From the NCBI GenBank assembly GCA_016927275.1, contig JAFGMW010000116.1:1456-65455 (forward strand): a DNA stretch of 64,000 bases, in the 5' to 3' direction. Below, piece by piece: positions 889-51,681 of the stretch. Numbering within the stretch: the first letter of the stretch is position 1; every line of letters begins with the position of its first letter. The stretch comes from Pseudomonadota bacterium (GTDB lineage: Bacteria > UBA10199 > 2-02-FULL-44-16 > JAAZCA01). The notes below the pieces were generated by a model. It was not told the origin of the DNA and made no database searches. It saw only the letters and a list, made by a program, of their open reading frames with translations. A program made the position numbers and the translations under genes.

Positions 889-3111
889 GTGATGAAAATA
901 GGTGTTCAGACAACTCTTCTTTCCTCCGTCTTTTCCTCCACTTCGATGGTGGGCGCGTCGCTCGCCGGCTCGCAGCTGGCCCTCGGTTCAGCGGGCATCT
1001 TCCTTGGGCCGAGCAGGAACCTGGCAGCGATCACCGCCTCACAGAGAGATCCAGGCCGCTGCCCTGCTGCTGTCTTTGCCAGGGCCAGCGCCACTGAGAC
1101 GCCGGCGTTCGGATATTCACAGGTCGCGCCCAGGGCAGCCATTGTGTCAAAGGCCGGGGCGGTCGCCTCAAAAAAGAATCCAGTCCAGACCGCGGCGGTC
1201 GGGGCCGCATCGAAGACGGAGGTGGCCGGCGAGAGGGGTTCGCCTCTTCTCCATGCGCCCTCTGAGGAGCGCGTTTCCGAGACGGGCGGTTCGGCCGATG
1301 CGCCGGATGAATCGGGCGTCATGGGCTGCTCGTCAGAGGGGTGCGCCGAGCGGTTCGAGTGTCCGGCGGAGTCGGTTGCCTTGTTCGCCCAGGCAGCTGT
1401 GATCGGCTTTGTTATCGGCGTGGAGTTCGCGATATCGGGCGGAGACGATGATGGGCTTTCGGTGTCCGGCGGCAGCGGAAAGGGCGCCGTCACTCCCTCC
1501 CAGCGCTTGACGCCGGAGCAGGGGGGCGCCATTCGCGGCCTTTCGGCCCGGCCCGCACTTGCGCAGGAGGAGACTTTGCGCCCTGTCTCCGATCTCGAGC
1601 CGTCGGCGCAGATGCGGTTCCCCGGTGCTGACGCTTCCTCCATAAGGTATATCGCGAAAGAAGCGGCCGAGGCCGATCGCGCGATCGACGCTTTTGCGAA
1701 GGGGCTGGCCGGCTCGGTCGCGGTCCTAACTGCCGCGGGACGTGGCGACAGGCCCAGGCTGATCTCGAATAAAATATTCCAGGAGCTCGCCAGGATGGGT
1801 TCCTTCAAGGGCGGGCCGTCGATCGCCGATTCGGAGGCGTTTACAGAGACGCTTGACGGCGCAGCGCTCGATCTCGAGATGGGCGGCCGCAGGATCGAGG
1901 CGATCTTCGCCAGGCACGACGGCAGGCTCGTATTCGCCGGATGGCGTGAGGCGGGGGACAGGGCCTTCGTGGCGCAGCCGGATGTCGCCCGCGAAGAGGC
2001 AGGCAGGATAGAGGCGCGCTTCGACGGGATGAGGGTCATGGGCCTCGGCCAGGCCGGCGGCGAGTCCTCTTTCGGCAAGGAACCGCTCGAGATAGACGAC
2101 CCCGAAGTCGTCGAGAGGCTCCTGGGCCTCATCCTCGCGCAGCTTGCGGCGGGGCCCGGGTCCCTTGCGCAGGGCGACATGCTCAGGCAGTTCAACGCCT
2201 TTGTCCGCGCCAGGCTCTCCAACGGATCGAGCGCGCCGCACACCCCGGAGCAGTGGGAGGCGTATCTCAAGGAGGCGCTGGTCTCGGCGGTCAGGCTCTC
2301 CATGCCATTCGACGAGAGGGGCGCTCGCTCCATAGAGCAGATCGAGTCGGACGCGGCGCGCATCCTGGGAATCGATCTCGTCAGGGTCTCGGAGTGGGAG
2401 GAGCACCTGGGCGCCGAGTTCATATCGGAGCAGCTCTTCGAGACCGCCGGGAGCCTGTCCATGGAGTTCGACCGGTCGTCGCCCAAGGCCAGGCTGGCCG
2501 CTGAATTCACAGGCTCGATAGAGTCCATGGCGAAGAGGGCCACGGGCGCGTCGCCCGATCCCGCGGTCCCGTTCGCCGACGAGGCCTCGGTCCAGTGGGG
2601 CGTGGCCCGCGCCGGCATGATGGAAGGGATCACCGCGAAGGCCGATCAGGCGGCAGGGCTCATGAGGGAGCTTCGCCTCTCCGGCAAAAGGGGCATGGCG
2701 TCGAGGGCGCTCGCCATAATCTTCAGGTCCTCCGATGCGAGCGAGGCGGGTGCGCGCGAGGACGGGATAGTCCCGCGCTGGTCCGAGGCCGAGGTCGCGG
2801 CGGTGGTCAAGAGGCTCATGACCGACGAGACCTGGGACGTGGCGAGCCACCGGTCGTTCCGCATGCACCTCACGCCGGCCGAGAACGCGTTCGCCAACCG
2901 CCTGGTGGAGATGGCCAACCTGCACAACGTCGTGGACGTGGTGCGCTCCTTAGACCTCGCCTCTGAGCGCGACATCGACGAGGTCTGGGAAGCGATCGAC
3001 TCTTCGGGGCAGGGCGAGGCCATCATGTCGATGGTCGTCGGGAAGATGACCGACATCCTGAGGCTGAGCCCCGGGATAATAGACGCTTCGATGAGCGAAG
3101 AGTTGAACTGA
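889..3111 (+). CDS. hypothetical protein, 740 aa
   Basis: Longest ORF in the region with balanced D/E/K/R composition. Overlapping minus-strand ORFs are S/P/R-rich, typical of antisense artefacts. No recognisable motif. Confidence 0.45.
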   Translation: MMKIGVQTTLLSSVFSSTSMVGASLAGSQLALGSAGIFLGPSRNLAAITASQRDPGRCPAAVFARASATETPAFGYSQVAPRAAIVSKAGAVASKKNPVQTAAVGAASKTEVAGERGSPLLHAPSEERVSETGGSADAPDESGVMGCSSEGCAERFECPAESVALFAQAAVIGFVIGVEFAISGGDDDGLSVSGGSGKGAVTPSQRLTPEQGGAIRGLSARPALAQEETLRPVSDLEPSAQMRFPGADASSIRYIAKEAAEADRAIDAFAKGLAGSVAVLTAAGRGDRPRLISNKIFQELARMGSFKGGPSIADSEAFTETLDGAALDLEMGGRRIEAIFARHDGRLVFAGWREAGDRAFVAQPDVAREEAGRIEARFDGMRVMGLGQAGGESSFGKEPLEIDDPEVVERLLGLILAQLAAGPGSLAQGDMLRQFNAFVRARLSNGSSAPHTPEQWEAYLKEALVSAVRLSMPFDERGARSIEQIESDAARILGIDLVRVSEWEEHLGAEFISEQLFETAGSLSMEFDRSSPKARLAAEFTGSIESMAKRATGASPDPAVPFADEASVQWGVARAGMMEGITAKADQAAGLMRELRLSGKRGMASRALAIIFRSSDASEAGAREDGIVPRWSEAEVAAVVKRLMTDETWDVASHRSFRMHLTPAENAFANRLVEMANLHNVVDVVRSLDLASERDIDEVWEAIDSSGQGEAIMSMVVGKMTDILRLSPGIIDASMSEELN

Positions 3112-5732: not shown

Positions 5733-5813
5733 CCCTCCTTTACATTAATATGCGCGACTAAGCATAAATAGTCACATTATACAAGTAAAAATGGGTTAAT
5801 TTATGATTTCATC

Positions 5814-5825
5814 GCATAATTATGC
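5814..5825. promoter_or_regulatory. perfect 12-bp palindrome GCATAATTATGC (ARG-box-like) in the argG upstream region
   Basis: tcGCATAATTATGCac lies in the AT-rich region 5733-5890, immediately upstream of the argG start. It resembles ArgR/AhrC operators (TGnAT-wwww-ATnCA). A related GCATAAATAG lies at ~5762. Confidence 0.4.
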
Positions 5826-5890
5826 ACTAATTGAACAGGGGAGTTCCGGCAGGGAACGGGGTGGATCCGCGTCCGGATGGATCATCCGGC

Positions 5891-8800
5891 CTATGAGCGC
5901 ATCGCTATCACCTGCAGCGCGGCATCGGTGCGGTATTTTTCAAGGGCCGCGACGGCGGCATTGCGGACGACCTCGTCCGGGTCGCGGGTGAGCTCTACCG
6001 CGCGCCTGGCCGATTCGGCGCAGTCGAAATGGGGGAGGGCCTGCGCCATCCGCAGCCGCACGACGGGATTCTCGTCGGTGCTCCTGGCTATGATCCAGGG
6101 CAGGATGCGCTCGTCCTCCGTGATGCTGAGCGCAGTGGCGACGACTGACCGCACCTCGTCATCGTTCGTGTGCAGGTAATGAGCCAGCCTGGGCACGTAT
6201 GGCGCCGTGTCCAGGCCGGTCCTCTTTAAAGCCGCGACAGCGCTTGCCGCTATTATAATGAGCTTCTGCGGCGCTTTCTCGGTCTCCAGCATGTCGAATA
6301 TGCTGTTCAGCCCATCTGCGGGCTTCAGCGCAAGGAGCGACTGCGCGGTGAACAATATCACCGTCGAGTCCTTTTCGGTCCTCAGCATCTCCTCCAGCAT
6401 CGGTGCGGCGCTCATAGGCTGGCGGAACATGCTTATCGCCTGCAGGGCGAGGAGCTTCAGGGTTGGAGAGTTCTCCGCCGAGCCCTCCTTGCCTGCGACG
6501 AGCGGCATGTCCATCATCGCCATGTGAAGGAGATCGCTGTCCGTGCAGTTATCAGGCATCTCCAGCGGATTCAGGATGGGCTTGCCGGTTGACTCCAGCG
6601 GGCTCTGCGTGATCCTGTCCATCATGGCGATCCAGTCCCTTTGATTGCGCCTCGGCGGTTCAAAGACCATGTCCCTCTTTCCGCGAGGCGAATTCGAGGC
6701 GCGCCCGACCCTCTTCGCTGTATTGTGGTAGCGCTCCAGGTCCCTGGCCAGCAGAGCGGCCACGTCCGGCGCATTCCACTTCATGAGAGCGTGCACTGCC
6801 AGGTATTTCACGCGAAGGTCCCTGTCGCCGGCCAAGTTTACGATCGATCTGATGAGCTCGATGCTCGGCCTCTCGATCTCCCTGTGGGAGGGGGTGCCCT
6901 TCCTCGGATCCGGCGGACCCTCGATCTCCGCCTCCGGCTGAGCGCCGCTCGCTTCCGGCTGCATATCCGTGATCATGGCCCTCAACGCCGCGATCCTCAC
7001 GTCGGGGTTTTCGTGATTCGAGAGGTTCTTCAGGTGACTCATCTTCTCCGCATCGTCCAGCAGTACGGCAGCCATTGCGGAGGCGATTTTGAAATGCGGT
7101 GAGCTGCGCTCCATGCCCAGCGTCTTCTTGACCCATGCGATCGCCTCATCCGACCTGTCCCCTTTCTTGAAGCAGGCGACAAGCAGCGCAGGGTGAGCCG
7201 CCGGATATCTCTCGAGGCTCTCTATGAGCATCGGGATGTCCGGTATCTGCGACGATCCCGTCGCCTTTTGAACCAGGCGGGTGATGATCGGGATGTACAC
7301 TTCGAAGCGGAGGTCCATGCCCGCAGGGGTTCTGCCGTTGGCTGCGGCGGCCTTGCCCGCAAGGTGGGCGATGATCCCGGCGGTGTGAACGGGATCGTCC
7401 AGCAGATCGTCAAATCTCTGGAATATCGCCTTGTAGCTTGCGGCGTCGAGCCCCCTGCCGTTCAATGATTTTTTATTGTTGAGCTTCTCCTGCAGATCTA
7501 TCGCCCAATCGACAAACGAGAGGGGGGAGATCGTTGCGTAGCGTCTGGCCAGGATCCTGGCCTTGATCCCCTGGAGCCTCAGCCTGTTGGCTTCCGCCCT
7601 CTTCCATTGGTTGCCCACGTGGTCCCCGGGAGCCCCTGTGTTCAGCGGATTGTTTCTCGTGAGAGTCATTATCGGGCTGACGACCGTTTGTTCGAGCATC
7701 AGGCCCACGGTTTCAGGATCGTAGAGCATGTCCGGATGGCTTTCGGTGTCAAAGTGACCGCCGTTCATGATCCTGGCCAGGAAGGCGTCGTCGCTTTCGG
7801 CCCACTTCTCTATGAGGGGGATGGAGTCTATGGACCTCAGTTTCTTAAGATGCTCGAGGGTGCTGCCGAATCTTAGGGCCGCCTCGGCTTCGAAGCCGTC
7901 CTCCGGGATCGTTGCGCGCGCCCTAGCGAGGGCGGCTCTGGATTCGGGAAAGTCGTCCACGAGCGGGTTGGCTTTGAAGTGGGCGGCCAGCTCCCTGCCC
8001 AGACCGGGTATTGCGCTGAGGATGTCGGGGTTGCGCATTATCTCCGAGTGGATGCGGTCTTCGCCCGACCGCTCGGTTCGGCCGCCCGCGCTCCATCTCG
8101 GTTCTTCCGGCTCTTCCCGGCCCGGGCCGAAGTCGTCTATGAAGATGTCATCTCCAGCCTTGTCGCGCGTCAGGTGCTCGAACAGCGGGGCGTTTTGTGA
8201 TATGAGCTTCGTCGCTATCTCGATCAGGAAGGGATGTTCGTCGAGAGACTCCGGCCGCCCCTTTATCCTCTTAACCGCCGCAGAGACCATCTTGGGATAC
8301 GCCTCGCTCTCGGCCCTCTCCTCCGCCTTCTTGGCCTCACGCTTCAAGATAATTTCTGTTGGAAGTGAAAGAAGCCCGTCGGATGGATCATCGATATCAA
8401 GCCTTTCCAGCAGGGCTGAGCCGCTCACCATCCTGTCGATGTTCATTTCAAGGCTGGACACGTCCATCGCGGACCAGAGCCTCAAGAAGGCCTCCTTAAG
8501 CTCCGACTCCTTGATCTCCCCGAGAGCGTAGGCGTAGAGATACTCCCCGATGTTCTCGCTGCTTCCGCGTTTGACGTCCATGATCACGTTGGCCCTGAGC
8601 TTGAGCCTCTCTTCGTCCGGGTCGCTTTCGTCGACGCTGAATGGCGCGTATATCTCGTGAAAGGGGACGGCCAGCACAGACCCGCCGAAAACATGGCCGG
8701 CCTTGAGCCATCGCATGCGCTCCCCTGAGTCGCTCCTGTCTCCGAAGAACCAGTCGTCGCTACCTTCCAGCACCATGACCATGTCCTCGTTCATCTGATT

Positions 8801-9433
8801 CTTTTTCGGCTCATGGTGCAGGGTCTGAAAGATGTGGTTCGAAGGGTCGGATTCGGCGTAGTCGATGCATTTTTCGGCCATGGCCATGGCGGATTGCATG
8901 CAGGTCGTCGAATGATCCTGCGAGCCATAGAGACGCTCGCATTGCTGCGCTTCCTTCGCGAAGTTGACGGCGCAAATATTAATCAGATCGTAACGGCTCA
9001 GAGGTTTCGAGGAGAGTGTGAACCGGGCACCTGCTGATCTGCCGGGCATTGCCGTCCCGTCAGGCCTATTTCTCTTTCCGGTCGTCGCCATGTGCAGAAA
9101 GAACTGGGGAGAATAATACAGGGCGTCGGAGTCAGATATGTAAGAGGCCGTGTCCGTTGAGAAAATTGAGATGAAAGAGCCGTCCGAGAGCCCCATCTCC
9201 ACCTGTTCGGCAAGGCATGTCTCGTCGGAGGGAGGCCCGTCGCCGCGGCACTCCATCCTGATCCTGTCGGCGAGACCGTCGCCGTTGAGATCGGCCTCGA
9301 TGGTGCGCCTTATCGCCTTGCCCTGGCTGTCGTTTTTCACCACGCCCATATCGAATCCCCTTCCGGGAGGCTCGTCGTCGGCCGTCACCGTTCGAGATTG
9401 GAACCCGCGACCCCGTTCTTCAGCCTGTTGCAC
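5891..9433 (-). CDS. large hypothetical protein (1180 aa) with C-terminal HEAT/PBS-lyase-type repeats
   Basis: C-terminal repeats of the form ENPDVRIAALRAM, DRDLRVKYLAVHAL, DENPVVRLRMAQAL and DPDEVVRNAAVAAL. The N-terminal region has a DLNGDGLAD motif and no other recognisable domain. GC content is lower than the flanking genes. Confidence 0.6.
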   Translation of the reverse strand: MQQAEERGRGFQSRTVTADDEPPGRGFDMGVVKNDSQGKAIRRTIEADLNGDGLADRIRMECRGDGPPSDETCLAEQVEMGLSDGSFISIFSTDTASYISDSDALYYSPQFFLHMATTGKRNRPDGTAMPGRSAGARFTLSSKPLSRYDLINICAVNFAKEAQQCERLYGSQDHSTTCMQSAMAMAEKCIDYAESDPSNHIFQTLHHEPKKNQMNEDMVMVLEGSDDWFFGDRSDSGERMRWLKAGHVFGGSVLAVPFHEIYAPFSVDESDPDEERLKLRANVIMDVKRGSSENIGEYLYAYALGEIKESELKEAFLRLWSAMDVSSLEMNIDRMVSGSALLERLDIDDPSDGLLSLPTEIILKREAKKAEERAESEAYPKMVSAAVKRIKGRPESLDEHPFLIEIATKLISQNAPLFEHLTRDKAGDDIFIDDFGPGREEPEEPRWSAGGRTERSGEDRIHSEIMRNPDILSAIPGLGRELAAHFKANPLVDDFPESRAALARARATIPEDGFEAEAALRFGSTLEHLKKLRSIDSIPLIEKWAESDDAFLARIMNGGHFDTESHPDMLYDPETVGLMLEQTVVSPIMTLTRNNPLNTGAPGDHVGNQWKRAEANRLRLQGIKARILARRYATISPLSFVDWAIDLQEKLNNKKSLNGRGLDAASYKAIFQRFDDLLDDPVHTAGIIAHLAGKAAAANGRTPAGMDLRFEVYIPIITRLVQKATGSSQIPDIPMLIESLERYPAAHPALLVACFKKGDRSDEAIAWVKKTLGMERSSPHFKIASAMAAVLLDDAEKMSHLKNLSNHENPDVRIAALRAMITDMQPEASGAQPEAEIEGPPDPRKGTPSHREIERPSIELIRSIVNLAGDRDLRVKYLAVHALMKWNAPDVAALLARDLERYHNTAKRVGRASNSPRGKRDMVFEPPRRNQRDWIAMMDRITQSPLESTGKPILNPLEMPDNCTDSDLLHMAMMDMPLVAGKEGSAENSPTLKLLALQAISMFRQPMSAAPMLEEMLRTEKDSTVILFTAQSLLALKPADGLNSIFDMLETEKAPQKLIIIAASAVAALKRTGLDTAPYVPRLAHYLHTNDDEVRSVVATALSITEDERILPWIIARSTDENPVVRLRMAQALPHFDCAESARRAVELTRDPDEVVRNAAVAALEKYRTDAALQVIAMRS

Positions 9434-10863
9434 CTGTCGTCCACCGTCCCGTCGTACCCGTCGCAGTTGAGCTGATCCAGCTCCTGCCTCCAGTTCCTGA
9501 AGTGCCCCTTGGGGTCCAGGATCATGCTTATCAGCGTGCCGACGCCAGGGAAGTGGCGCATGAATCCGGCGACATCCTGCTTCGTGACATCATTTCCGCC
9601 CGCGCCCCTGGAGTCGTTGCGATAACTGGTGCTGTCCGGCTGACTCGAGCGGCTGTGCGTTTCTTCGCCGCTATCGTCCAGCATCGCACTCCTGATGAGG
9701 ACCACGCTCTTGTCCTCCATTATCCTGAAGAACAGCTTGGTGATCGAAAATTCATGGGTGACGGAGTCTATTCCGAACGCGCTCACGGTGTCGCCTATAG
9801 CCGCGGGTATCCTGACCCTCACCGTCCCGTCGGGGCCGGCGGCGTTGCTGCTGCCCGCTCTCGATCTCAGATTCTCGAGGCTGGCTATGAAATAGGGCCA
9901 GTCCGCCACGCATCGAAGATCAGCCCTCGACCTCACGTAGCATCCGTAGAGGTCGAAGATGAAGTGCTTGCCGTCAAAAGACGCCCTGTAATTGACGCGG
10001 TCTTTTCTCAGAGGGCCGGGGAGGTCTATCTGCGGAGACGCCCCTGCGTTGCCCACGTATTTTTCCAGGAGATCGTCAAACGAGGGTATGCTGGCGTATC
10101 TTGATGAGCCGTCATTTTTGAACCGAGGGTCCTCCTCGTACGGCACCGGATCGTCCAGCCACTTCGGGTAATCGGGGCTGAAGGCGGAGAGGTCGGGCGC
10201 CTTTTTGGGGGCCTTTGCGGTCCTGCCGGGCCTTGTTTTCTTTGGCGCAGGGATGTCCGGCAGCGACGGCTCGTCCGGCGCGACGCATACGCCCCCTGCC
10301 TCAGGGTCGCTTTTCAGGTTGCGCGCGTCGAGGCACAGCTCGGTGCACCTCTGGCTGTCTATGTACTGCCTTATGTAACTCTTGAACTGCTTGAAGTCCT
10401 TGAACCGCATGAGGTCGGCTTCGACCCTCTTCACGTCGTTGAACTCCTTTTCGGAAAGCTGCCCGTCCGTCTTGCCCTCATTCGCCACGGCGTCGATCTT
10501 CGTGAGGATCGAATAGAGAGAGATGCCGCCGAGCATCACGCACCTGGGGACGCTCCTGATGTCGAGCGGGGACTCGTTCACCGCTATGCCCGACTCCTCC
10601 TGACAGATGGGGTTGAAGCGGTTGTTCTCGATGTAACTTTCGACATAATCCCTGAACCGAAAGAAGCCTTCGAACGCTGAGAGGTCCCTCCAGCCGACGA
10701 GCCTCAGGCGCAGGGCATCGTCGTAGTTCGCGCGGGTGAACTTGCCGTCAGGGGCATTTCCCCTCGCCTTGTCCGCTTCGCGGTCCAGCCCCCTCACGAA
10801 GTCCTTGAGGTCCGCAAGGCAATTCGGGATGCTGCCCACCGATATGTGATCAAAAGCGCTCAT
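9385..10863 (-). CDS. hypothetical protein, 492 aa
   Basis: Long ORF with balanced composition, same strand as its neighbours, and stop 10 nt after the upstream gene. No recognisable motif. Confidence 0.55.
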   Translation of the reverse strand: MSAFDHISVGSIPNCLADLKDFVRGLDREADKARGNAPDGKFTRANYDDALRLRLVGWRDLSAFEGFFRFRDYVESYIENNRFNPICQEESGIAVNESPLDIRSVPRCVMLGGISLYSILTKIDAVANEGKTDGQLSEKEFNDVKRVEADLMRFKDFKQFKSYIRQYIDSQRCTELCLDARNLKSDPEAGGVCVAPDEPSLPDIPAPKKTRPGRTAKAPKKAPDLSAFSPDYPKWLDDPVPYEEDPRFKNDGSSRYASIPSFDDLLEKYVGNAGASPQIDLPGPLRKDRVNYRASFDGKHFIFDLYGCYVRSRADLRCVADWPYFIASLENLRSRAGSSNAAGPDGTVRVRIPAAIGDTVSAFGIDSVTHEFSITKLFFRIMEDKSVVLIRSAMLDDSGEETHSRSSQPDSTSYRNDSRGAGGNDVTKQDVAGFMRHFPGVGTLISMILDPKGHFRNWRQELDQLNCDGYDGTVDDRCNRLKNGVAGSNLER

Positions 10864-10872
10864 TTATCGCGT

Positions 10873-11535
10873 TCACTCCGCTTTTTTTGGCGGCGCATAG
10901 ATCTCGGGAAACGCGCTTCGGTCTTCGACCGACTTGATGTCGGCCATGCGGATTACTTTTGTGTCATCCTGGGACAGCTCCTTGCCGTTGCGCGCCTGGA
11001 CGAGTTTCGCCTTGGATATGACCTGGAGCTTGATCCCGTCGTAGTTCACGGTCATGTTCCTGCCGTCCCAGCGGACCGCGTCGGTTATCACGATGCGGAC
11101 CACAAAGTAGGTCCCCTTGGATCCCTTGATAGTCACCGGGTCATCCTCCTGCACGCTCTTCTTGAGGTGTTTGATCGGAAAAGGGGTCTGGTTCTTCAAC
11201 GGGAAGATGGGCATGGCGAGGTGGGTCTTCACCTTCGTCATGTTATCCGAGACCGAGTACTCCGCATTCCAGAAGGGCCCGGTCAATTTGCCGCCTTCGG
11301 CCGTATCTGTGTGCGAATCCTGTTTCCCGAAAAGGGCTGTGACCTGATTGAAGAGCGCCTCCTTCGGCATCTCCCCGCAGAGCGTCAGGATCTTTCTGGT
11401 GACGGTGAAGTACTCCTCCTTTTTCCCGTCCAGATTCAGGTCCGCGGGCACCATATCCACTATCGATTCCTGCTTCGCGACCGTGATGCCCTTCATCTGC
11501 GGCATGCTGCATACTTTGGGCGTCTTCTCGCTCAT
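10873..11535 (-). CDS. hypothetical protein, 220 aa, Lys-rich
   Basis: First gene of the three-gene minus-strand operon. No recognisable motif. GC ~55%. Confidence 0.55.
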   Translation of the reverse strand: MSEKTPKVCSMPQMKGITVAKQESIVDMVPADLNLDGKKEEYFTVTRKILTLCGEMPKEALFNQVTALFGKQDSHTDTAEGGKLTGPFWNAEYSVSDNMTKVKTHLAMPIFPLKNQTPFPIKHLKKSVQEDDPVTIKGSKGTYFVVRIVITDAVRWDGRNMTVNYDGIKLQVISKAKLVQARNGKELSQDDTKVIRMADIKSVEDRSAFPEIYAPPKKAE

Positions 11536-11661
11536 AAAATCTCCTTTAATTTCAACATATTGAATTAATGTCCTATATAGATTATCGGTTGAGAAGGGCG
11601 CTGAGTTGCTTCATCTTTTCAATTTATGAAAAGAAAAAAGATTGATAACGGGCCCGCATCT

Positions 11662-11673
11662 GCATATTTATGC
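11662..11673. promoter_or_regulatory. ARG-box-like near-palindrome GCATATTTATGC upstream of argR
   Basis: Closely resembles the argG-upstream palindrome. It lies 16 nt upstream of the argR ATG at 11689. Confidence 0.3.
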
Positions 11674-11688
11674 TTATCAGGAGGGCAC

Positions 11689-12141
11689 ATGGACCATCTG
11701 AGGAGGCAGGAGATGATAGAGGCCTTGAGAAAGCTCCTCTCCGAGGGGTTTGAGGGGACGCAGGAGGAGATCTGCGAGGAGCTGGCAGGACAGGGGTTCG
11801 AGGTCAACCAGTCCACAGTCTCCCGGGCCCTGAGGAGGGTGGGCGCCGTCAAGTCCATGGCGGCCGGCAGGATCGCCTATCGGCTTGGCGAGGCCCGCTC
11901 GGCAGGGTTCACAGGGTCGGTCAGCGACCTGGTACAGACCATTGACGCAAACGACACGATGATCGCCATCAGGACGGTCGCCGGCTCCGCCTCGTTCGTG
12001 GCAGAGTTCCTGGACAGGGCGGGGCTCAGGAATGTGCTCGGGATAGTCGCGGGAGACGACACGATATTCGTTGCCCCGAGGCATACCGGGGAAATCGCCA
12101 CGACGCTGGAGGAGCTCCGCCAGGCGGTCAGGGGCGCTTAG
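11689..12141 (+). CDS. argR: arginine repressor
   Basis: N-terminal winged-helix with QSTVSRALRR and C-terminal GIVAGDDTIFV (ArgR GTIAGDDT motif). Start chosen at MDHLRRQE, which is preceded by AGGAGGG. Confidence 0.85.
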   Translation: MDHLRRQEMIEALRKLLSEGFEGTQEEICEELAGQGFEVNQSTVSRALRRVGAVKSMAAGRIAYRLGEARSAGFTGSVSDLVQTIDANDTMIAIRTVAGSASFVAEFLDRAGLRNVLGIVAGDDTIFVAPRHTGEIATTLEELRQAVRGA

Positions 12142-12249: not shown

Positions 12250-13800
12250 ATGACCATGGCATCGACCAGCCCTGTTAGGTGGCCTTTCCCAAACGGGATG
12301 AGCGCGTTCTCCCCGGCCTTTTCAGGGGTGAGGCCTGAGATGCTCTCGAACATAAGGCCAGTTTCCGCGGAGCGGCCGTCGCCCGCGGGCGGAGTTTTCG
12401 AAGGGGCCGCCGGCCTCACCGAGGCGCGCGCGCGCGTCATGCTGTGCGGCGGATTTCCGTTGAGGGACGGCCGCGGCTGGACCTTCAGCGAGGCGGGCCA
12501 CCGCGAGATAGCGAGGGACTACTACAGGCGGTCGCGCGGGATGATCTTCGAGGGGAGCCGCTTCGACCAGAGGAGCGACTACCTCTTCACGAACGAAATC
12601 GACTACCACTCAGCGTTGTCGGCGATCAGCGGCAGGGGGGGTGCCTACGCCGGCGTGGGCCACATGCTCTCGTTCACCTATCCCGCATGGCAGGGCGCTG
12701 CTGACGCATACGCAGTGGACGCGAACGCGAGGGTCCCTTTCATCACCATCCCGCTGTACGGGCTCATGCTCGCAATGGCTGCCGACCGGATCGATCTCAT
12801 CTCGCTGCTCACCGGCAAGCTCGTCCCGAGATCGGCGAAATGGCGAGATCTCGTCGACGGGCCTCCGTGGCTGCTCATCGAGAACCTGATCGCGCTCCCG
12901 GGCAACCCTTCGTTCGCTGCGGCGGTGAAGCGGGAGCTGACCGAGACCCTGGTCGGCGCCGCGCCTTACCTCGACGCCGGATCGCTCGAGCACGAGGCCT
13001 CAGGCCTCGTCGACCGCATCAGGAATTCGATCCTCCGATCCAACGCCTCGTTTTACAGCCTGTTCAACCCGGTGGCGCTCATGAAGGCGAAGGACTCGGC
13101 CGGCCGCGGAGGGCCGCTGACTAGCGAGGAGCAGCTCCGGAGGGAGAGGTCGCTCTTCATAGAGGGCAGGATCACGGGGGTCGCCTCCCCGATACAGGCC
13201 GCGGGGCTCGATGCGGTGATGTCCCGCGTCTCGGAGTCCGGCGACCGCCTTGGCGTGATGTATCTGTCCAACCTCGAGGACTGGCTCTTCGACGACGTGG
13301 AGGAGGACGAGGAGGGCAGGCGCGACGGCGCGAAGGCCCAGAGGTTCGCAGAGGGGGTGGCCGCTCTTTACGGCAGGCTGCGCGGCTTCGACTATCCCGA
13401 GGAGTCGCTGCTCGTATCCGCGAAGGGCTGTTACCCCACCTCGGTCCACGGCCTCGTCGGATATCTCGGCGACTCAATGCCTCCCGACATGCCGCCCGCC
13501 GATGCCGGGCGTTCCGCGCGCCTGGTCTACAGGCTGCGCAGGGAGGCGGCCAGGGCGGGCCGCGAGCCGATCCGCCAGAGGCTCAAGTTCCTCGAGGGGC
13601 ATCTTGCAAAGAGGCCCGATCTGGCCGAGATCCCGGCCGCGCTGAGGAGGGGATGGAGGGGGAGCCCCTACGGGCAGAAAGAGGCGTGCCGTGCGCTGCT
13701 TGACAGGTCAGGGTATTTCAGGGGACTTACGGATTGGGAGCGTTCATCCGTGATCAGGATACTCATCGGGATGGGAGTCGTAAAAGGGGCGGGCGAATGA
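12250..13800 (+). CDS. hypothetical protein, 516 aa, paralog 1 of a tandem pair
   Basis: Shares long conserved blocks with the next gene, e.g. LFTNEIDYHSA..GGAYAGVGH..TYPAWQGAADAYAVD and ERSLFIEGRITGV..GERLG.MYLSNLEDWLF. No known family recognised. Confidence 0.6.
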   Translation: MTMASTSPVRWPFPNGMSAFSPAFSGVRPEMLSNIRPVSAERPSPAGGVFEGAAGLTEARARVMLCGGFPLRDGRGWTFSEAGHREIARDYYRRSRGMIFEGSRFDQRSDYLFTNEIDYHSALSAISGRGGAYAGVGHMLSFTYPAWQGAADAYAVDANARVPFITIPLYGLMLAMAADRIDLISLLTGKLVPRSAKWRDLVDGPPWLLIENLIALPGNPSFAAAVKRELTETLVGAAPYLDAGSLEHEASGLVDRIRNSILRSNASFYSLFNPVALMKAKDSAGRGGPLTSEEQLRRERSLFIEGRITGVASPIQAAGLDAVMSRVSESGDRLGVMYLSNLEDWLFDDVEEDEEGRRDGAKAQRFAEGVAALYGRLRGFDYPEESLLVSAKGCYPTSVHGLVGYLGDSMPPDMPPADAGRSARLVYRLRREAARAGREPIRQRLKFLEGHLAKRPDLAEIPAALRRGWRGSPYGQKEACRALLDRSGYFRGLTDWERSSVIRILIGMGVVKGAGE

Positions 13801-15290
13801 ACAGGTTCAACCCTCAGATCCCGGCTGCCGCGCCTTTGTCACAGCCGACCCTCGGCTTCGGGCCCATTCCCTCCATGCCGTTACTCAGGTCTCCGCACAT
13901 CCTGGATTCGACTGCGCATGCGGAAAGGCTGCGCGAGCAGGGGGCGTATCCCGAGCGCGCGTTCGGACGGTGGCGCGCGGACGCGCAGTCTCTGAAACAC
14001 GTGATGGAGGGGTATTTCGACAGGTCGAAACCGATGATCTCCGCGGGCAGCGACTCCAGCTCAAAGGTCGATTTTTTCCTCACCAACGAGCGGGGTTACA
14101 CTTCGGCCATAGGCAGCATCAAAGACAATGGAGGCGCTTTCGTGGGTGTGGGCAGGTGCGTGCCGGTCACCTATGCGGCATGGCAGAACGCGTCGCATGC
14201 CTATGTCGTGGACAGGAAGGCGGCCATACCGCTGGGCTTCACCCCCATCTACGGCGCATGGCTCTGCATGGCAGGGTCCCGCATCGAGTTTCTGTCGCTC
14301 ATACTGGGCAGGCCGCTGCAGAGGACGATCAACGCGGAGGGCTTTTCCGCAGAGGACATAGTCGACATAGTGCAGTCGATGCCCTTCGACGCATCGTTTG
14401 CGCGCTCCGTCGTGTCCGCCATAGCGTCCACCTTCACGATAAGCGCCAGGACCTCGGGCGTCCATTCCCTCAAGGGCGTGCTCATGGAATGGATGGCGAA
14501 GCTGGACAAGGCCTTTTATCGGCATCGCAGGTCAACGGGCGAGGAGATGAATCCGGCCGCAGCCCTCATGAGGCACGACCCGCAGGGACGCGGAGGCGCG
14601 CTGTCCAGCGATGCATCGTTCATGAGGCAGAGGGATGTCTTTCTGGAGGGGAGGATCACGGGCGTGTCCGGCGACATGATCGAAGGGGGCCTCGATATCG
14701 TGGAAGCGGATATGAGGAGAAGGGGGGAGAGGCTGGGGGCGCTGTACATCTCGAACATCGAAGACCTGCTTCTCTTCAACTACCTGTTCGACGAGAGGAA
14801 GCCCGATGTCTACACGAGGGTCCTCAGGGTGCAGAGGTACTACGACTTTTACCGCAGGATTGCGGCCGTGCCCGATGCGGAGGACGCCTTCGTGATATCC
14901 GCCAAGAAGAGGCGCGTGACGAGCGTGGACAGGGTGGCAAGATATGTCCGACGCAGCATCCCGCTCGAGCTGGGCGTCGATCAGGCCACCAACGCGGCCA
15001 AGGACTTCTATCGTCTTCGCGTGGACGTTGAGTTTCTAAAGGGCTTTCCTCTCATGGAGCGGCTCGAGCGGATTTCGAAGAGCTGCAGGAGCAGGCATCG
15101 GTTCAACATCGCGCTGTCTGTCCTCAGGTCGATCTTCCGCGGGAGCGCGGTGAACCGGGAGGCGTTCGAGGCGAGGCTGGCGAAAGAGTTCGATCGCAAA
15201 GGATTGGAGAGGAGCGGGTGGTGGGAGCGGATGTTCGTTGAAAATCTCGAGGAGCTGGGCCTTGTGACGAGGAGGCTCAGTCCTTCCTGA
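13797..15290 (+). CDS. hypothetical protein, ~497 aa, paralog 2 of a tandem pair
   Basis: Its ATG at 13797 overlaps the TGA of paralog 1 (ATGA), indicating translational coupling. Conserved blocks include FFLTNERGYTSA..GGAFVGVGR..TYAAWQNASHAYVVD and QRDVFLEGRITGV..GERLGALYISNIEDLLLF. Confidence 0.6.
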   Translation: MNRFNPQIPAAAPLSQPTLGFGPIPSMPLLRSPHILDSTAHAERLREQGAYPERAFGRWRADAQSLKHVMEGYFDRSKPMISAGSDSSSKVDFFLTNERGYTSAIGSIKDNGGAFVGVGRCVPVTYAAWQNASHAYVVDRKAAIPLGFTPIYGAWLCMAGSRIEFLSLILGRPLQRTINAEGFSAEDIVDIVQSMPFDASFARSVVSAIASTFTISARTSGVHSLKGVLMEWMAKLDKAFYRHRRSTGEEMNPAAALMRHDPQGRGGALSSDASFMRQRDVFLEGRITGVSGDMIEGGLDIVEADMRRRGERLGALYISNIEDLLLFNYLFDERKPDVYTRVLRVQRYYDFYRRIAAVPDAEDAFVISAKKRRVTSVDRVARYVRRSIPLELGVDQATNAAKDFYRLRVDVEFLKGFPLMERLERISKSCRSRHRFNIALSVLRSIFRGSAVNREAFEARLAKEFDRKGLERSGWWERMFVENLEELGLVTRRLSPS

Positions 15291-21731: not shown

Positions 21732-21793
21732 AGCCTTATTTCACCGACCCCGAAAAAGGGCCCCGGCTCCTTGCGGAACCGGGGCCCGATTCT

Positions 21794-21846
21794 ATGTACA
21801 ACAAGGCTGAGGTTAAGGCTTAGGCTAAGTGGTGCTCAACCTCAAC
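21794..21846. repeat. hexamer tandem-repeat hairpin, (GGCTGA/GGTTAA/GGCTAA)n facing (CAACCT)3, between convergent genes
   Basis: ggctgaggttaaggcttaggctaag ... ctcaacctcaacctcaacctg. Sits between the protease stop (21731) and the glnA stop (21858) and likely acts as a bidirectional terminator. Confidence 0.65.
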
Positions 21847-21857
21847 CTCAACCTGAT

Positions 21858-23270
21858 TTATATATCGTAATACAGACTGAACTCCATGGGCACGGGCCGA
21901 AGCCTCATCTGGTTCACCTCGTGCTCGCGCTTGTAGGAGATCCAGGTGTCGATGGCGTCCTGCGTGAACACGTCGCCCGCGAGCAGGAACGCGTGGTCCT
22001 GTTCCAGCGCGTCCAGCGCCTCCTCGAGCGAGGCCGGCGCGCGGCCCACGTCCTTGAGCTCCTCTGGGGAGAGCTTGTAGATGTTCTTGTCGAGCGGCTT
22101 TCCCGGGTCCACGCGGTTCTGTATCCCGTCCAGCCCCGCCATGAGGATGGCGGCGAACGCGAGGTAGCCGTTGCACGACGGATCGGGGGTTCGGTACTCG
22201 ATCCGCTTGGCCTTGGGGCTGGAGGAGTACATGGGGATCCTGAACGAGGCGGAGCGGTTGCGGCTCGAATAGGCCAGGTTGATCGGCGCCTCGAAGCCGG
22301 GGACCAGGCGGCGGTAGGAGTTGGTCGTCGGGTTGCAGATCGCCGAGAGCGCCCTGGCGTGCTTCAGCATCCCGCCCATGAAGTGCATTGCGGTCTCGGA
22401 GAGCCCGCCGTAGCGGTCGCCGGCGAACAGCGGCTTGCCCCCCTTCCAGAGGGATACGTGGATGTGCATGCCGCTGCCGTTGTCCTCGAAGAGCGGCTTG
22501 GGCATGAATGTCACTGTCTTCTGGTTCCTGCGGGCCACGTTTTTCACGATGTACTTGAACCACAGCAGCTTGTCGCCCATCTCCACCAGCGGGGCGAACC
22601 GCATATCGATCTCGGCCTGGCCCGCGGTGGCCACCTCGTGGTGCTGGCATTCGACCTGGATCCCCACCTTCTCCATCTCCAGCACCATCTCGGTGCGCAG
22701 GTCGTGCTGGCTGTCGGTGGGGGAAACAGGGAAGTAGCCCTCCTTGTAGCGGGGCTTGTAGCCCAGGTTTTTCTCGTGGTCGGTCCCGCTGTTCCAGCGC
22801 CCCTCCTCCGAGTCGATGCGGTAGAAGCCCTCGTTGGTGGTCTGGTCGAACGCTATGTGGTCGAAGATGAAGAACTCGGCCTCGGGCCCGAAGAACGATG
22901 TGTCCGCGATGCCCGTGGAGCGGAGGTACGCCTCTGCCTTCCGGGCTATGTGCCTCGGATCGCGGGTGTACGGCTCCTTTGTTATGGGGTCCACGATGTT
23001 GCAGATCATCGACAGGGTGGAGTGGTTCATGAACGGGTCCATGACAGCGGTCGCAGGGTCCGGGATGATGAGCATGTCCGAGGCGTGGATCGGCTGCCAG
23101 CCCCTCATCGAGGAGCCGTCGAAGCCGAAGCCGTCATCGAACGAGTTCTCGTCCAGCTCGGTGACCGGCACCGAGAAGTGCTGCCAGACCCCCGGGAAGT
23201 CCACGAACTTGAAGTCCACCATCTTCGCCCTGTTCTCCTCGATCATCTTCAGCGTCCTGGATATAGGCAT
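21858..23270 (-). CDS. glnA: glutamine synthetase type I
   Basis: GS signature regions ([35 protein letters not shown], adenylylation-region NIYKLSPEE). 470 aa. Confidence 0.95.
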
Positions 23271-23326
23271 CTGCCCTCCTGAGAAAGGTTATAAAGAACG
23301 TCCGGTTTTTTAGAAAAAAAAAAGGA

Positions 23327-23930: not shown

Positions 23931-24947
23931 ATGGCCATGGGGGGTAAAAAAATCAAGGTTAAGGTTAAGGCTAAGGCTAAGGCTAAGGCTAAGGTTAAGC
24001 CTAAGCCTAAGCCTAAGCCTAAACTTAAGCCTAAACCTAAGCCTAAACCTAAGCCTAAACCTAAACCTCAAGTTAAGGCCAAATTGCCTGAGTGGCCGCC
24101 CCCCCTTGAGATCTACTCTTCAACGGATCCGCTCTCTCTGATGCGCAAGGTGCTGGCCCGCTGCGACCAGGCTTTTCTATCGCGCCAGGTCTCATATTCG
24201 CTCTCCACCTCAGAGGGGCTGGGGGAGGTGTGGGTGGACGAGGAGGGGATATCCTCTGCGATGGACACCCTTCTCATGCACCTTGTTTCGCGTTCCCCTC
24301 GCAAATCGGTGATCTCCGTGCAGCTTTGCCCGTTCGCCATGCACAGCGGCTCAGGCGTTCAGATCGCCTTTGAGGCCATCGACAGGTTGATCAGGGACGT
24401 GGACCACAAGGCGTTCATGGCCTCGATCTTCGACGGGGGGGCGGACCAGGAGACCGGCGTCTCGCTCGCCGCCCTGAGGGAGAGGGTGATGGCGCAGCAC
24501 GGAAGGCTCTGGGCGGAGCTGCCGGGCGGGAACAGGACCCTGTTCAAGATAGTGCTCCCCTCGACGAGGGACGTGGCCAGGCAGGCCCTTCTCGGCCAGC
24601 GCACCTTCAGGTGCGACATCGCCATCACCAACTACCCGCTCGTGAGAAAGCGCTTCGGCCTGATGAAGGGCAGGCACCTAGTGGAGCAGGTGGAGCGCTA
24701 CGTGAAATCGCTGGTGAGGTTCCCTATCGACATGGTGACCGCGGACCTCGACGCAGGCAGCATCACCGCGATCTACGAGGCCCAGCCGGGGGCCGCGGAG
24801 TCGGTCTACTCCCGCATATCCAAGAGGCTGGGGCAGGAGACCTTCCACATCGGCAAAAGACCGGTGGAGCTCCTCTTCAGGTACGAGCTCAAGGGCGGCG
24901 CCGGCCATTCTGCGCCATCGGCCGGCCGAAACCGGGGGAAAGGCTAG
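23931..24947 (+). CDS. hypothetical protein with Lys-rich (KV/KA/KP)n N-terminal tail and a degenerate histidine-kinase-like ATPase (HATPase_c-like) domain
   Basis: Residues 7-50 (KIKVKVKAKAKAKAKVKPKPKPKPKLKPKPKPKPKPKPKP) are encoded by GGTTAA/GGCTAA/GCCTAA hexamer repeats. Downstream, ETGVSLAALRERVMAQHGRLWAELPGGNRTLFKIVLP resembles the HATPase G2 box. Confidence 0.5.
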   Translation: MAMGGKKIKVKVKAKAKAKAKVKPKPKPKPKLKPKPKPKPKPKPKPQVKAKLPEWPPPLEIYSSTDPLSLMRKVLARCDQAFLSRQVSYSLSTSEGLGEVWVDEEGISSAMDTLLMHLVSRSPRKSVISVQLCPFAMHSGSGVQIAFEAIDRLIRDVDHKAFMASIFDGGADQETGVSLAALRERVMAQHGRLWAELPGGNRTLFKIVLPSTRDVARQALLGQRTFRCDIAITNYPLVRKRFGLMKGRHLVEQVERYVKSLVRFPIDMVTADLDAGSITAIYEAQPGAAESVYSRISKRLGQETFHIGKRPVELLFRYELKGGAGHSAPSAGRNRGKG

Positions 24948-26675: not shown

Positions 26676-28250
26676 CTATCTCAGCGGTCCCCGCAGGCCC
26701 ATCATCAACGAGGCCCCTCCGTTGAGCGGGGGGATGAACGGACCCCGGTTTGCGACTGCGCCGAGAGGGCTCAATGCGGGCGCGAAGGGCAGGTTCGACG
26801 GGCGGACCGGCGGTGCGGCATCCCGTCCTTCGGGGTCGCGGTTGTCGTCGCCCGACGGGATCTCGATCACCATCGACCCGTGACGATACTCTATCTTTCC
26901 GCCGACCCTCGCAGCGAGCGTGTCCAGCTCCGCCCTGCCGTGGCTGGCCGGTCCCAGCGCCGCAAAGGCGCTGCGGCCTTCGGTCAGATCGGTCACCACG
27001 AGAGTCCTCCGGTCAGGCCTCCAGTCCACGTCCACGCGGGCAGGCGTCACGGGCCGCAACGACGAGGCAGGCGCGGACCCGTCGTACGCATACGATGCAC
27101 CCATGAGGAAGACGAGCCTGGCGGCCAGCCGCTTAAGATGCCTGTTGTTCCTCGCGGTTATCAGGGCGTCATGGGGGGCGCTCACCCTGACGTCGAGCCA
27201 TGGCCGCGCCTCGCGTTCCGCGCCGAAGCTCCTCATGAGCGAGAGCGGGCAGAATATCCCGCGGCAGCTGTCTGCCGTCTCGGCGTTCCTGAAGATGTTG
27301 ACCAGCGCAGTCAAGGCGGACGGATTCCCGGCGAGGTCAATCCAGGGGAGCCTGTCCAGGAAGTGGTCCATGAGCCCGGCGACGAATGCGCTCTCCCACC
27401 TGCCGCCGAGCGCCTCGTTTTTTCGAAATCCCTTGAATGCGCCGAAGAGCGCTTTCAGCGGCATGGCGTCCAAGCCCACTGACCTCGCCGTCGAGGCATT
27501 GTCGATCCCCTCCGGCCTCAGGAATGCGCGCTCCAGCCTGAACAACAGTTTCTCCGCCATGAGATATAGGTCGGAGGAGAGGCTCTCCCATGCCTGGAGG
27601 TAGTCCGCCGCGTTTGTGGTGGCCGCCACCCTCCTGCTGAACTGCTCGATCAGCGAAACGGACCACAGCTTGCTGCCATAGCCCTCGATCATCACCTCGT
27701 AGTTGTTGACGCGCTCCACCCTCAACGCGCCGTCGGCGGTGGTCGCCTCGTCGTCGAAGGGGAACTCATCGCCTTCGACGACGGCCTTGAAGTCGAGATG
27801 GGCGAGCAGCGGCGCATTGGTGCGCATGGCCGATGAAACTGTGAACACCGCGAGCGCGGCGGAGTCGATCTCGTCCTCTTCGAGCTGGTGCCTGTCGGCG
27901 CCGATGATCATGCGGCCGTGCGGGGTGTGGGCCACGAATCCGCCGGTCGGGAGGTCCTCGAGCCACAGGAGGTCGCGGTCTGCCCTGAGGATGTCTTCAA
28001 ACGATCTGGTTATCGCCTCGGCGGATATGCCGTCTGAAAACAGCAGCGGGAAGATCGAGCGCCCGGCGCCCGCCCCGCTGGGGAAGATGTCATTGAAGAG
28101 GGCGCTCACGGCGTTGTCGTAGGAATCCTCGTTCCCGCGCGCGAGGGCGACCACATTGCGCCACTTGTCCTCGAGCGGCTCTATCTCCCTGAGCAGGTCG
28201 AGCACCGTCGCTTTTCTCATTTCCACCGGGTGCGCCAATTTTCCCTCCAT
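26676..28250 (-). CDS. hypothetical protein, 524 aa
   Basis: Long ORF with balanced composition, downstream of the PilZ gene on the same strand. No recognisable motif. Confidence 0.5.
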   Translation of the reverse strand: MEGKLAHPVEMRKATVLDLLREIEPLEDKWRNVVALARGNEDSYDNAVSALFNDIFPSGAGAGRSIFPLLFSDGISAEAITRSFEDILRADRDLLWLEDLPTGGFVAHTPHGRMIIGADRHQLEEDEIDSAALAVFTVSSAMRTNAPLLAHLDFKAVVEGDEFPFDDEATTADGALRVERVNNYEVMIEGYGSKLWSVSLIEQFSRRVAATTNAADYLQAWESLSSDLYLMAEKLLFRLERAFLRPEGIDNASTARSVGLDAMPLKALFGAFKGFRKNEALGGRWESAFVAGLMDHFLDRLPWIDLAGNPSALTALVNIFRNAETADSCRGIFCPLSLMRSFGAEREARPWLDVRVSAPHDALITARNNRHLKRLAARLVFLMGASYAYDGSAPASSLRPVTPARVDVDWRPDRRTLVVTDLTEGRSAFAALGPASHGRAELDTLAARVGGKIEYRHGSMVIEIPSGDDNRDPEGRDAAPPVRPSNLPFAPALSPLGAVANRGPFIPPLNGGASLMMGLRGPLR

Positions 28251-33433: not shown

Positions 33434-33478
33434 GACCGCCTCCTGTCCTCTCATCCAACCGTTCCGATTTCAAAAATC

Positions 33479-35305: not shown

Positions 35306-35483
35306 ATCCACCTCCCTGTGCCAGGGGCAGTTTCCATCAATATTGATTAACAGCATAAAGCGTGCCATCCCCTGTATCGGGAGCTGCCTTTCAAGTTATT
35401 GTAAATAATATGGTTTAAAGCTCAGGCAATAAGGGGCATGGATCAAAAGGGTAAAAACATACCGGCTTGTGTCAGGAATCCGA

Positions 35484-35510
35484 CATGCAGTCGACTACCA
35501 GAAACTATCA
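35484..35510. repeat. second copy of the 27-nt palindrome ACCAGAAACTATCAGCTTGTTTCTGGT
   Basis: Identical to the copy at 28831-28857. Followed by ttattggtttgtatttg (T-rich). Lies between the cstA stop and the start of FG-GAP lipoprotein 2. Confidence 0.6.
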
Positions 35511-35522
35511 GCTTGTTTCTGG

Positions 35523-49447: not shown

Positions 49448-49517
49448 GCCAAAGCGCGATAAGGTCCCTGCAGGAGGTAGGGTGTCGAAAAAGGTTCCCA
49501 CATGGCTGGGGTGGAGG

Positions 49518-51511: not shown

Positions 51512-51681
51512 GAATCGTGCCCGGAAAAGGGTGTCAGATATTTTATCGAGTTATATTGATATTTTGGGATTTTTTGAGAAGGCGAGGATTCAAAAATGCT
51601 TATCCGACATGAAGAACTATCAATATGACCATCCTATGACGTGCGCAGCGTCAAAAATTTGGCGCCACTTCGACAGGCGGC

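Follow-up and report, generated by a model that had tools for sequence, protein, structure and literature searches.

A rare bacterial HEAT-repeat protein with an FG-GAP-like head and a conserved partner gene

The 64,000-nt stretch that we analyzed (contig JAFGMW010000116.1, positions 1,456 to 65,455, from assembly GCA_016927275.1 of an uncultured bacterium labeled Pseudomonadota; the whole stretch is here called the window, and position 1 is its first letter) holds three genes, A, B and C, that lie head to tail on the minus strand, with gaps of 9 nt (A-B) and 35 nt (B-C), between divergent argR and argG-argH. Gene C, our main subject, encodes a large protein in which a conserved head (residues 1-295) and a variable middle region (residues 296-700) are followed by a C-terminal solenoid of HEAT repeats. 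Residues of C are numbered on its 1152-aa form, and the extents of the genes and of their parts are collected in Table 1.

Table 1. Extents of genes A, B and C in the window, with the parts of the protein encoded by gene C
Feature	Coordinates	Strand	Description
Gene C	5891..9349	-	1152-aa protein, ATG 9349 to stop 5893-5891; corrected extent
Spurious 28-codon 5' extension of gene C, from GTG 9433	9350..9433	-	Holds the 35-nt B-C spacer, GGAAGGGG (9357-9364), and the last 16 sense codons and stop of gene B
C, FG-GAP-like single beta unit, residues 13-80	9110..9313	-	Invariant loop and C34/C45; beta strands in AlphaFold2 (AF2) model
C, helical hairpin, residues 116-176	8822..9004	-	Helices 119-141 and 144-167; invariant C126/C161; from alignment, AF2 model and sequence
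C, second conserved head part, residues 177-295	8465..8821	-	Short strands and helices; motifs LYAPF and KLRxNVxxDVKxxxSxxxxEYxYAxxxGEI
C, variable all-helical middle, residues 296-700	7250..8464	-	Disordered stretch 389-427; large alignment gaps; helices from AF2 model
C, HEAT-repeat alpha-solenoid, residues 701-1152	5894..7249	-	~11-12 helical hairpins in three blocks; from Pfam, AF2 model, Foldseek and phmmer
Gene B	9385..10863	-	492 aa, no known domain; conserved partner of C
Gene A	10873..11535	-	220-aa basic protein (pI 9), no known domain; first of the A-B-C unit

Gene C is a real gene, and its supported start is the ATG at 9349. The minus-strand open reading frame (ORF) 5891..9433 does translate to 1180 residues, as the original prediction held, but the codon at 9433, which had been taken for an ATG, reads GTG, and the first in-frame ATG (9349-9347) opens a protein of 1152 aa that begins with MGVVKN. 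This start had been offered as an alternative (at ~9352), and it is borne out by a ribosome-binding site, GGAAGGGG, at 9364-9357, 7 nt 5' of the ATG, by the gene calls in public records (the 1152-aa form is given by NCBI, as MBN1283665.1, and by Logan), and by the family alignment, in which the N termini of the C homologues all lie 7-26 residues ahead of the DLNGDG motif and the extension occurs in none. Gene B stops with the TGA at 9387-9385 and gene C starts at 9349; therefore, the two genes are separated by 35 nt and do not overlap, and the 49-nt overlap proposed earlier is an artifact that arose because the longest possible ORF was taken. The base composition of gene C is that expected of a real coding frame in this genome, with a GC content at third codon positions (GC3) of 0.78 versus 0.43 at second positions (GC2). 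The frame is open back to 9589, but a fusion of B to C by frameshift was rejected, since every homologue is a separate protein that starts with the DLNGDG head.

The C-terminal HEAT repeats, originally recognized from four degenerate strings (all present in the translation), are confirmed by sequence profiles and structural modeling as a solenoid of the PBS-HEAT type. The Pfam model HEAT_2 (PF13646) matches C in 4 stretches (E of 2.9e-19; 69.6 bits versus a cut-off of 27.7) and HEAT (PF02985) matches it with an E of 1.7e-8 (34.4 bits versus a cut-off of 23.5); both are matched by 10/10 family members, and HEAT_PBS is matched by 4/10. An AF2 model built on the 10-sequence family alignment (mean predicted local distance difference test score [pLDDT], 76.4; predicted TM-score [pTM], 0.57) places ~11-12 stacked hairpins over residues 705-1151, with a pLDDT of ~90 over 960-1150, and the blocks of the solenoid are split by two disordered, poorly conserved insertions (796-825 and 884-931); a single-sequence AlphaFold run reached a pLDDT of only 39, and its model was unusable. 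Within the family, the solenoid region is 30-34% identical. When the AF2 model was compared with the PDB by Foldseek, alpha-solenoid scaffolds were the only matches (alphaRep, Kap121, CAND1, the PP2A A subunit and importins; best E of ~3e-5, TM-scores of 0.14-0.24), and the combination of structure prediction and Foldseek put forward as a check on the repeats has thus recovered a solenoid. Among solved chains, the nearest in sequence are those of artificial alphaRep proteins (phmmer E of 1.8e-16 to 1e-3, over the last ~120 residues), which places the last repeats of C in the prokaryotic PBS-HEAT type. The accompanying view that large HEAT-repeat proteins are uncommon in bacteria does not hold, as bacterial HEAT proteins of 700-2100 aa dominated the results of our searches.

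The design of alphaRep proteins started from a consensus of PBS-HEAT-like repeats, and the prokaryotic proteins of this type (PF13646, PF03130) have the same helical-hairpin solenoid as C. Proteins of the alphaRep type, however, are short arrays of near-identical repeats, whereas the solenoid of C is degenerate, carries the two disordered insertions and is fused to ~700 family-specific residues. The best Foldseek matches, with E values of 3e-5 to 5e-4 over 600-1000 aligned columns, are eukaryotic HEAT scaffolds (the PP2A A subunit, karyopherin-beta and CAND1), which are extended protein-binding solenoids, the role that we infer for C. At identities of 10-15% and the TM-scores given above, the resemblance is one of fold class and does not amount to homology, and unlike C, the eukaryotic scaffolds have no FG-GAP-like or cysteine-hairpin head.

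The head of C is conserved about as well as its HEAT region (~32% mean pairwise identity), compared with only 18% in the middle region. Its first unit carries the loop D20-L-N22-G-D24-G-x-x-D28, coded at 9266-9292 and reported in the original prediction as ADLNGDGLAD near the N terminus. The string is present in the translation, and the motif is a real, selected feature: D20, N22, D24 and D28 are invariant in 11/11 family sequences, whose mean column identity is ~31%, and each C-family protein has one DxNxDGxxD motif. The same unit holds a QVEMGLSDGxF motif and resembles every repeat of P0013, an FG-GAP_3 protein (E of 1.4e-12), with a phmmer E of 1.8e-4 and an hhalign probability of 65%. C shares with the FG-GAP/FG-GAP_3 (VCBS-type) propellers, which are integrin-alpha-like, the DxNxDGxxD loop and, behind it, a ...C...C.A...G..DG.F pattern that can be aligned to every P0013 repeat. 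Such propellers need ~seven units, however, and C has one and no signal peptide; no C-family member matches Pfam FG-GAP or FG-GAP_3 above threshold (best E of 0.011, in 3/11 members), so that the link to FG-GAP is only transitive, via P0013. Judged by its sequence, the first unit is FG-GAP-like, with a loop predicted to bind Ca2+, and does not amount to a propeller. The AF2 model has ~11 short strands in the head in total.

Behind this unit lies the helical hairpin with the invariant pair C126/C161, followed by a conserved HxFQ(P) motif (H172, Q175). The hairpin of the window protein is extended and has an inner cysteine pair as well, giving C126-x10-C137 ... C150-x10-C161 (twin Cx10C). CHCH (twin CX9C) helical hairpins occur in the mitochondrial intermembrane space, and the two Cx10C pairs, set on antiparallel helices, may resemble such a doubly stapled hairpin. 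This likeness is offered as an analogy, and no sequence relationship is claimed; unlike in CHCH proteins, only the outer cysteine pair is conserved in the C family, and the spacing is variable (Cx9-14C in short forms). One relative, P0007, is without C34 and C45 yet keeps C126 and C161, and this joint loss suggests two independent cysteine pairs and not a single four-cysteine site. In another, P0010 (locus L010, 10001-12787), the hairpin together with HxFQP is triplicated, which suggests that it behaves as a structural or binding module. An internal duplication of a different motif, SRNxAEYFYAYxEGxI, was seen in P0005 (locus L006, 1109-3796).

The remainder of the head contains further invariant positions (P236, L251, N254, S264, Y270, A273 and I279) and is modeled with pLDDT values of 79-95 over residues 221-300. 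The middle region accounts for most of the difference in size between the long forms (1136-1234 aa) and the short forms (842-928 aa) of the family, and hhalign detected no cryptic HEAT signal in it when it was compared with the C-terminal repeats. Within the N-terminal 700 residues of C, profiles of Pfam, NCBIfam, PADLOC, PHROGs and PDB sequences found no match, and the head returned nothing meaningful from the PDB profiles even at E<=10; matches to UTR4, myelin P2 and eclosion hormone in the PDB profile searches of A, B and the C head were dismissed as chance level. The original statement that the first ~800 aa have no assignable domain therefore stands as far as Pfam, NCBIfam and PDB profiles are concerned, but the region is conserved within a small family of its own.

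That family is very rare. It came to light only when all of 1.84 billion cluster representatives were searched by phmmer with the HEAT-free residues 1-692 of C, which gave 12 matches at E<=1e-3 (9 at E<=1e-10): C itself, nine full-length relatives (842-1234 aa, 30-36% identity), one 90-aa fragment, and P0013. The family thus amounts to ~ten clusters at 50% identity among the 1.84 billion. All full-length relatives have the same architecture of head, middle and solenoid; C does not represent a piece of some known family, and the suggested search for homologues fused to enzymatic domains found no such fusion among them. Word-index searches with the C protein and with the C and B alignments returned only the query, one or two known members, and generic HEAT proteins; scans of genome, metagenome and viral contig collections with the C family revealed no further locus; and a degenerate DNA pattern for C.A.Q[VIL]EMG..DG recovered only the L002 contig again. 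Literature searches turned up nothing relevant on the family accessions or on operons combining HEAT and FG-GAP. Carriers are uncultured bacteria that NCBI labels "Proteobacteria bacterium" or "Deltaproteobacteria bacterium." Sequencing run ERR7850084 contains two family members (P0006 and P0009) on separate contigs (L008 and L012), each with its own B gene, which represent either two coexisting carrier organisms or two copies in one genome.

Gene C is rarely found without gene B. A B homologue lies directly upstream of C in 9/10 loci, at gaps of -14 to +106 nt, and B-C is therefore a conserved unit; the only locus without B is L011, which holds the most distant C member. Apart from B, no neighboring gene recurs around C, whose loci represent at least 7 different genomic neighborhoods. 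The B family ranges from 338 to 492 aa. The window protein has four cysteines that are invariant in the family (C173, C193, C308 and C318), a Pro/Lys-rich linker, a further domain, and a weakly hydrophobic C-terminal segment. Its residues ~5-90 and ~105-190 each match the N-terminal domain that short-form B proteins have in one copy, a tandem duplication with ~95 residues per copy that is present only in genomes with gene A and long-form C. We found no match to B in Pfam, NCBIfam, PADLOC, PHROGs or the PDB; NolX/HrpF (Pfam PF05819) was approached by 1/8 B proteins, at 14.6 bits versus a cut-off of 26.1.

Gene A is confined to the long-form lineages. Its homologues (~210 aa, 32-37% identical) occupy the same position in L002, L004 and L005, only with long-form C (three long-form genomes), and share an invariant ADLNxDGxxxEYF motif; in the six short-form loci (L006-L010 and L012), B is directly upstream of C, with gaps of -14 to +34 nt, and there is no A. 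No match to A was obtained from Pfam, NCBIfam, PADLOC, PHROGs or the PDB. PADLOC returned nothing for either A or B, and for C only HEAT-ARM_XIII, confined to a 79-residue stretch of generic HEAT (E of 1.2e-8). Neither a Sec/Tat signal peptide nor a convincing transmembrane helix was found in A, B or C, and no amphipathic or transmembrane segment is evident in C (maximum 19-residue Kyte-Doolittle hydropathy of 1.24, and at most 1.97 in any member); therefore, the three proteins are made in the cytoplasm, where they may or may not stay.

The related metagenomic genome represented by L002/L003 has the same gene order as the window, serS ... argR-A-B-C-(one extra gene)-argG-argH, and allows the cassette to be compared with its neighbors. 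Housekeeping proteins in the two genomes are 65-83% identical (ArgG 83%, SerRS 74%, ArgH 65%, ArgR 65%), whereas B is 47%, C ~32-43% and A 32% identical; the cassette diverges much faster than the genes around it. (The extra gene between C and argG, at L002 13739-15721 on the minus strand, is a 660-aa ORF with no family match, and it is unrelated to the 740-aa ORF that lies beside argH in the window.) In the L004/L005 genome, A-B-C sits in an unrelated neighborhood. Codon usage of the cassette is native, the GC3 of A, B and C being 0.78-0.81 against a host range of 0.70-0.92, and recent horizontal transfer was rejected on the grounds of this codon usage and the conserved synteny. Across the cassette (window positions 6001-12000), the plus strand has an AT skew of -0.15 to -0.20, and the GC content is 0.57-0.61 versus 0.62-0.66 in the flanks. 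Because GC3 lies within the host range, we attribute the skew to purine-rich, Lys/Glu/Asp-rich coding on the minus strand and not to foreign origin.

We favor the reading, with confidence and doubt evenly balanced, that C is soluble, has no enzymatic role, and serves as a scaffold or adaptor in a complex with B, to which A is added in the long-form lineages. In such a complex, the HEAT solenoid would supply an extended protein-binding surface, and the head would be a family-specific interaction or sensor module, stabilized by Ca2+ and by its cysteine pairs (as disulfides or metal ligands). The proposed association of B and C draws on their adjacency in 9/10 loci across at least 7 different neighborhoods; the non-enzymatic character draws on the lack of any catalytic family match for A, B and the C head in Pfam, NCBIfam, PADLOC, PHROGs and the PDB; and divergence faster than that of the housekeeping genes is consistent with a binding scaffold whose constraint is loose or diversifying. 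Several considerations weigh against this reading: gene adjacency is all that points to the B-C complex; "non-enzymatic" is an argument from absence, and the invariant H172, Q175, N254, S264 and Y270 could form an unrecognized active site; an FG-GAP Ca2+ loop together with conserved cysteine pairs is what extracytoplasmic proteins typically have, and it suits a purely cytoplasmic scaffold poorly; and the AF2 model draws on 10 sequences only.

The main rival, which we regard as possible, albeit unlikely, is that A-B-C is an exported module (an effector, a surface protein, or a mediator of cell-cell or predator-prey interaction) that leaves the cytoplasm by a route independent of signal peptides, such as a contractile injection system or secretion of type I, III or VI. 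In that case, the head would fold in an oxidizing, Ca2+-rich setting, and the HEAT solenoid would bind a target protein of another cell. The invariant FG-GAP-type loop, the paired cysteines of both C (C34/C45, C126/C161) and B (C173/C193, C308/C318), and the FG-GAP_3 repeat protein as closest relative of the N-terminal unit are all in keeping with export, as are the rapid divergence relative to housekeeping genes, the differing neighborhoods of the cassette among genomes, and the Pro/Lys-rich linker in B. Yet a secretion-system gene was found neither in the window nor at any of the homologue loci (and phage or defense genes were not seen in the window either), and the proteins carry no signal peptide, known secretion marker domain or toxin domain; the NolX match of B is below the cut-off and limited to one member, the codon usage is native, and the chromosomal position kept between two genomes whose housekeeping proteins are 65-83% identical indicates vertical inheritance. 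A broader proposal, that A-B-C is an undescribed multiprotein apparatus of an uncultured deltaproteobacteria-like lineage whose Ca2+-loop and cysteine-stapled modules act beyond the cytoplasm (in the periplasm, at the cell surface or inside another cell) although no signal peptide is present, strikes us as doubtful. Comparably improbable, in our estimation, is that the head of C is an unrecognized enzyme or metal-binding domain (formed by C34, C45, C126 and C161 with H172, or by S264 and H172), for which the HEAT tail only recruits substrate. Invariant or near-invariant polar residues do cluster in the head (H172, Q175, N254, S264, Y270, Y272 and E51), together with four conserved cysteines, and the head equals the HEAT region in conservation (~32% versus 18% for the middle); still, no catalytic family or solved structure was matched even at E<=10, the loss of C34/C45 from P0007 with retention of C126/C161 argues for two independent pairs and not one Cys4 site, and the triplication of the hairpin in P0010 points to a module for binding or structure, since an active site does not behave in this way.

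Two further explanations take the architecture or the repeat type of C as their starting point. Proteins with a beta domain followed by an alpha-solenoid are found among the coat-like proteins of the Planctomycetes-Verrucomicrobia-Chlamydiae group, eukaryotic coat proteins, and nucleoporins, and C has the same order, a beta-rich N terminus and then a long alpha-solenoid. A bacterial membrane-coat-like protein is nonetheless very unlikely, as the ~11 short strands of the head are split by the helical hairpin and form no complete propeller of 6-8 blades, and the FG-GAP-like unit is single. A phycobilisome-type lyase or degradation protein, akin to CpcE, CpcF or NblB, is more improbable again and effectively refuted. 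C has its repeat type in common with NblB/CpcE/CpcF, HEAT_PBS repeats occur in 4/10 members, and there is a weak NblB match (NF045915, E of 7.2e-8), but this match, at 32.2 bits versus an equivalog cut-off of 300 bits, spans only generic repeats (residues 1009-1160), C is five times as long as the NblB model (214 positions), and neither the window nor the 10 homologue loci contain a phycobiliprotein or bilin gene, so that both size and context differ.

Outside the cassette, the window carries the genes of an ordinary chromosome (serS, a dsbA-like gene, gpsA, the gene for PBP1A, dinB, rpe, priA, a sigma-54 activator gene, and polX, in addition to the arginine genes). argG-argH has its own upstream region, which holds an ARG-box-like palindrome. 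This palindrome, TGCATAWWTATGC, occurs twice only in the window (0.06 matches expected by chance), at 5813-5826, ~85 nt upstream of argG, and at 11661-11674, 15 nt upstream of the likely argR start, within the divergent intergenic region that argR has in common with gene A. From their sequence and placement, the two copies look like ARG boxes for ArgR autoregulation and argGH control. The longest argR ORF (11626-12141, plus strand) would encode 171 aa from the ATG at 11626, but the ATG at 11689 has a strong AGGAGGG site in front of it, and the public call is of 150 aa; the 171-aa ORF is probably too long, through the same longest-ORF error as in gene C. A functional tie between the cassette and arginine metabolism was rejected, the position between argR and argG being found in only 2/10 genomic contexts, and a promoter and terminator scan of the cassette gave nothing above shuffled expectation.

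Several other large ORFs in the window merit mention. Two tandem paralogues (12250-13800 and 13734-15290, plus strand) are 31% identical to each other and match DUF7790 (Pfam E of ~1e-11); the first also weakly resembles the Leptospira LIC_10091 lipoprotein family, and the pair is in the same position in L002. Adjacent proteins of 747 and 629 aa (31211-33454 and 33479-35368, minus strand) have FG-GAP/FG-GAP_3 matches and one Big_5 match, and they carry three DxNxDGxxD loops, the only other copies of the motif in the window; by BLAST, the pair has no relation to A, B or C. Beside argH, a 740-aa ORF rich in Ala, Gly and Ser (889-3111, plus strand) has no family match, and no Pfam match was obtained for the large ORFs at 21771-23282, 23931-24947, 26676-28250, 35443-37068, 49389-50483 and 50408-51559.

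The HEAT part of C belongs to a known type and already carries that annotation, whereas the head and middle of C, with B and A, constitute an undescribed and extremely rare set of families; the label "HEAT/PBS-lyase" should not count as a functional assignment. The mixture of a solenoid of cytoplasmic type with features of extracellular type (the FG-GAP Ca2+ loop and paired cysteines) is unusual and raises the question of where the protein acts. Were the extracytoplasmic apparatus considered above to exist, it would imply either an unrecognized export route or an unrecognized class of effectors built on a HEAT solenoid. If B-C (or A-B-C) is a real complex, it would represent a new family pair, with the C head, the cysteine hairpin with HxFQP, B, and A as domains that could be deposited, and the module would mark a fast-evolving, lineage-restricted system in poorly known bacteria of sediment and groundwater.

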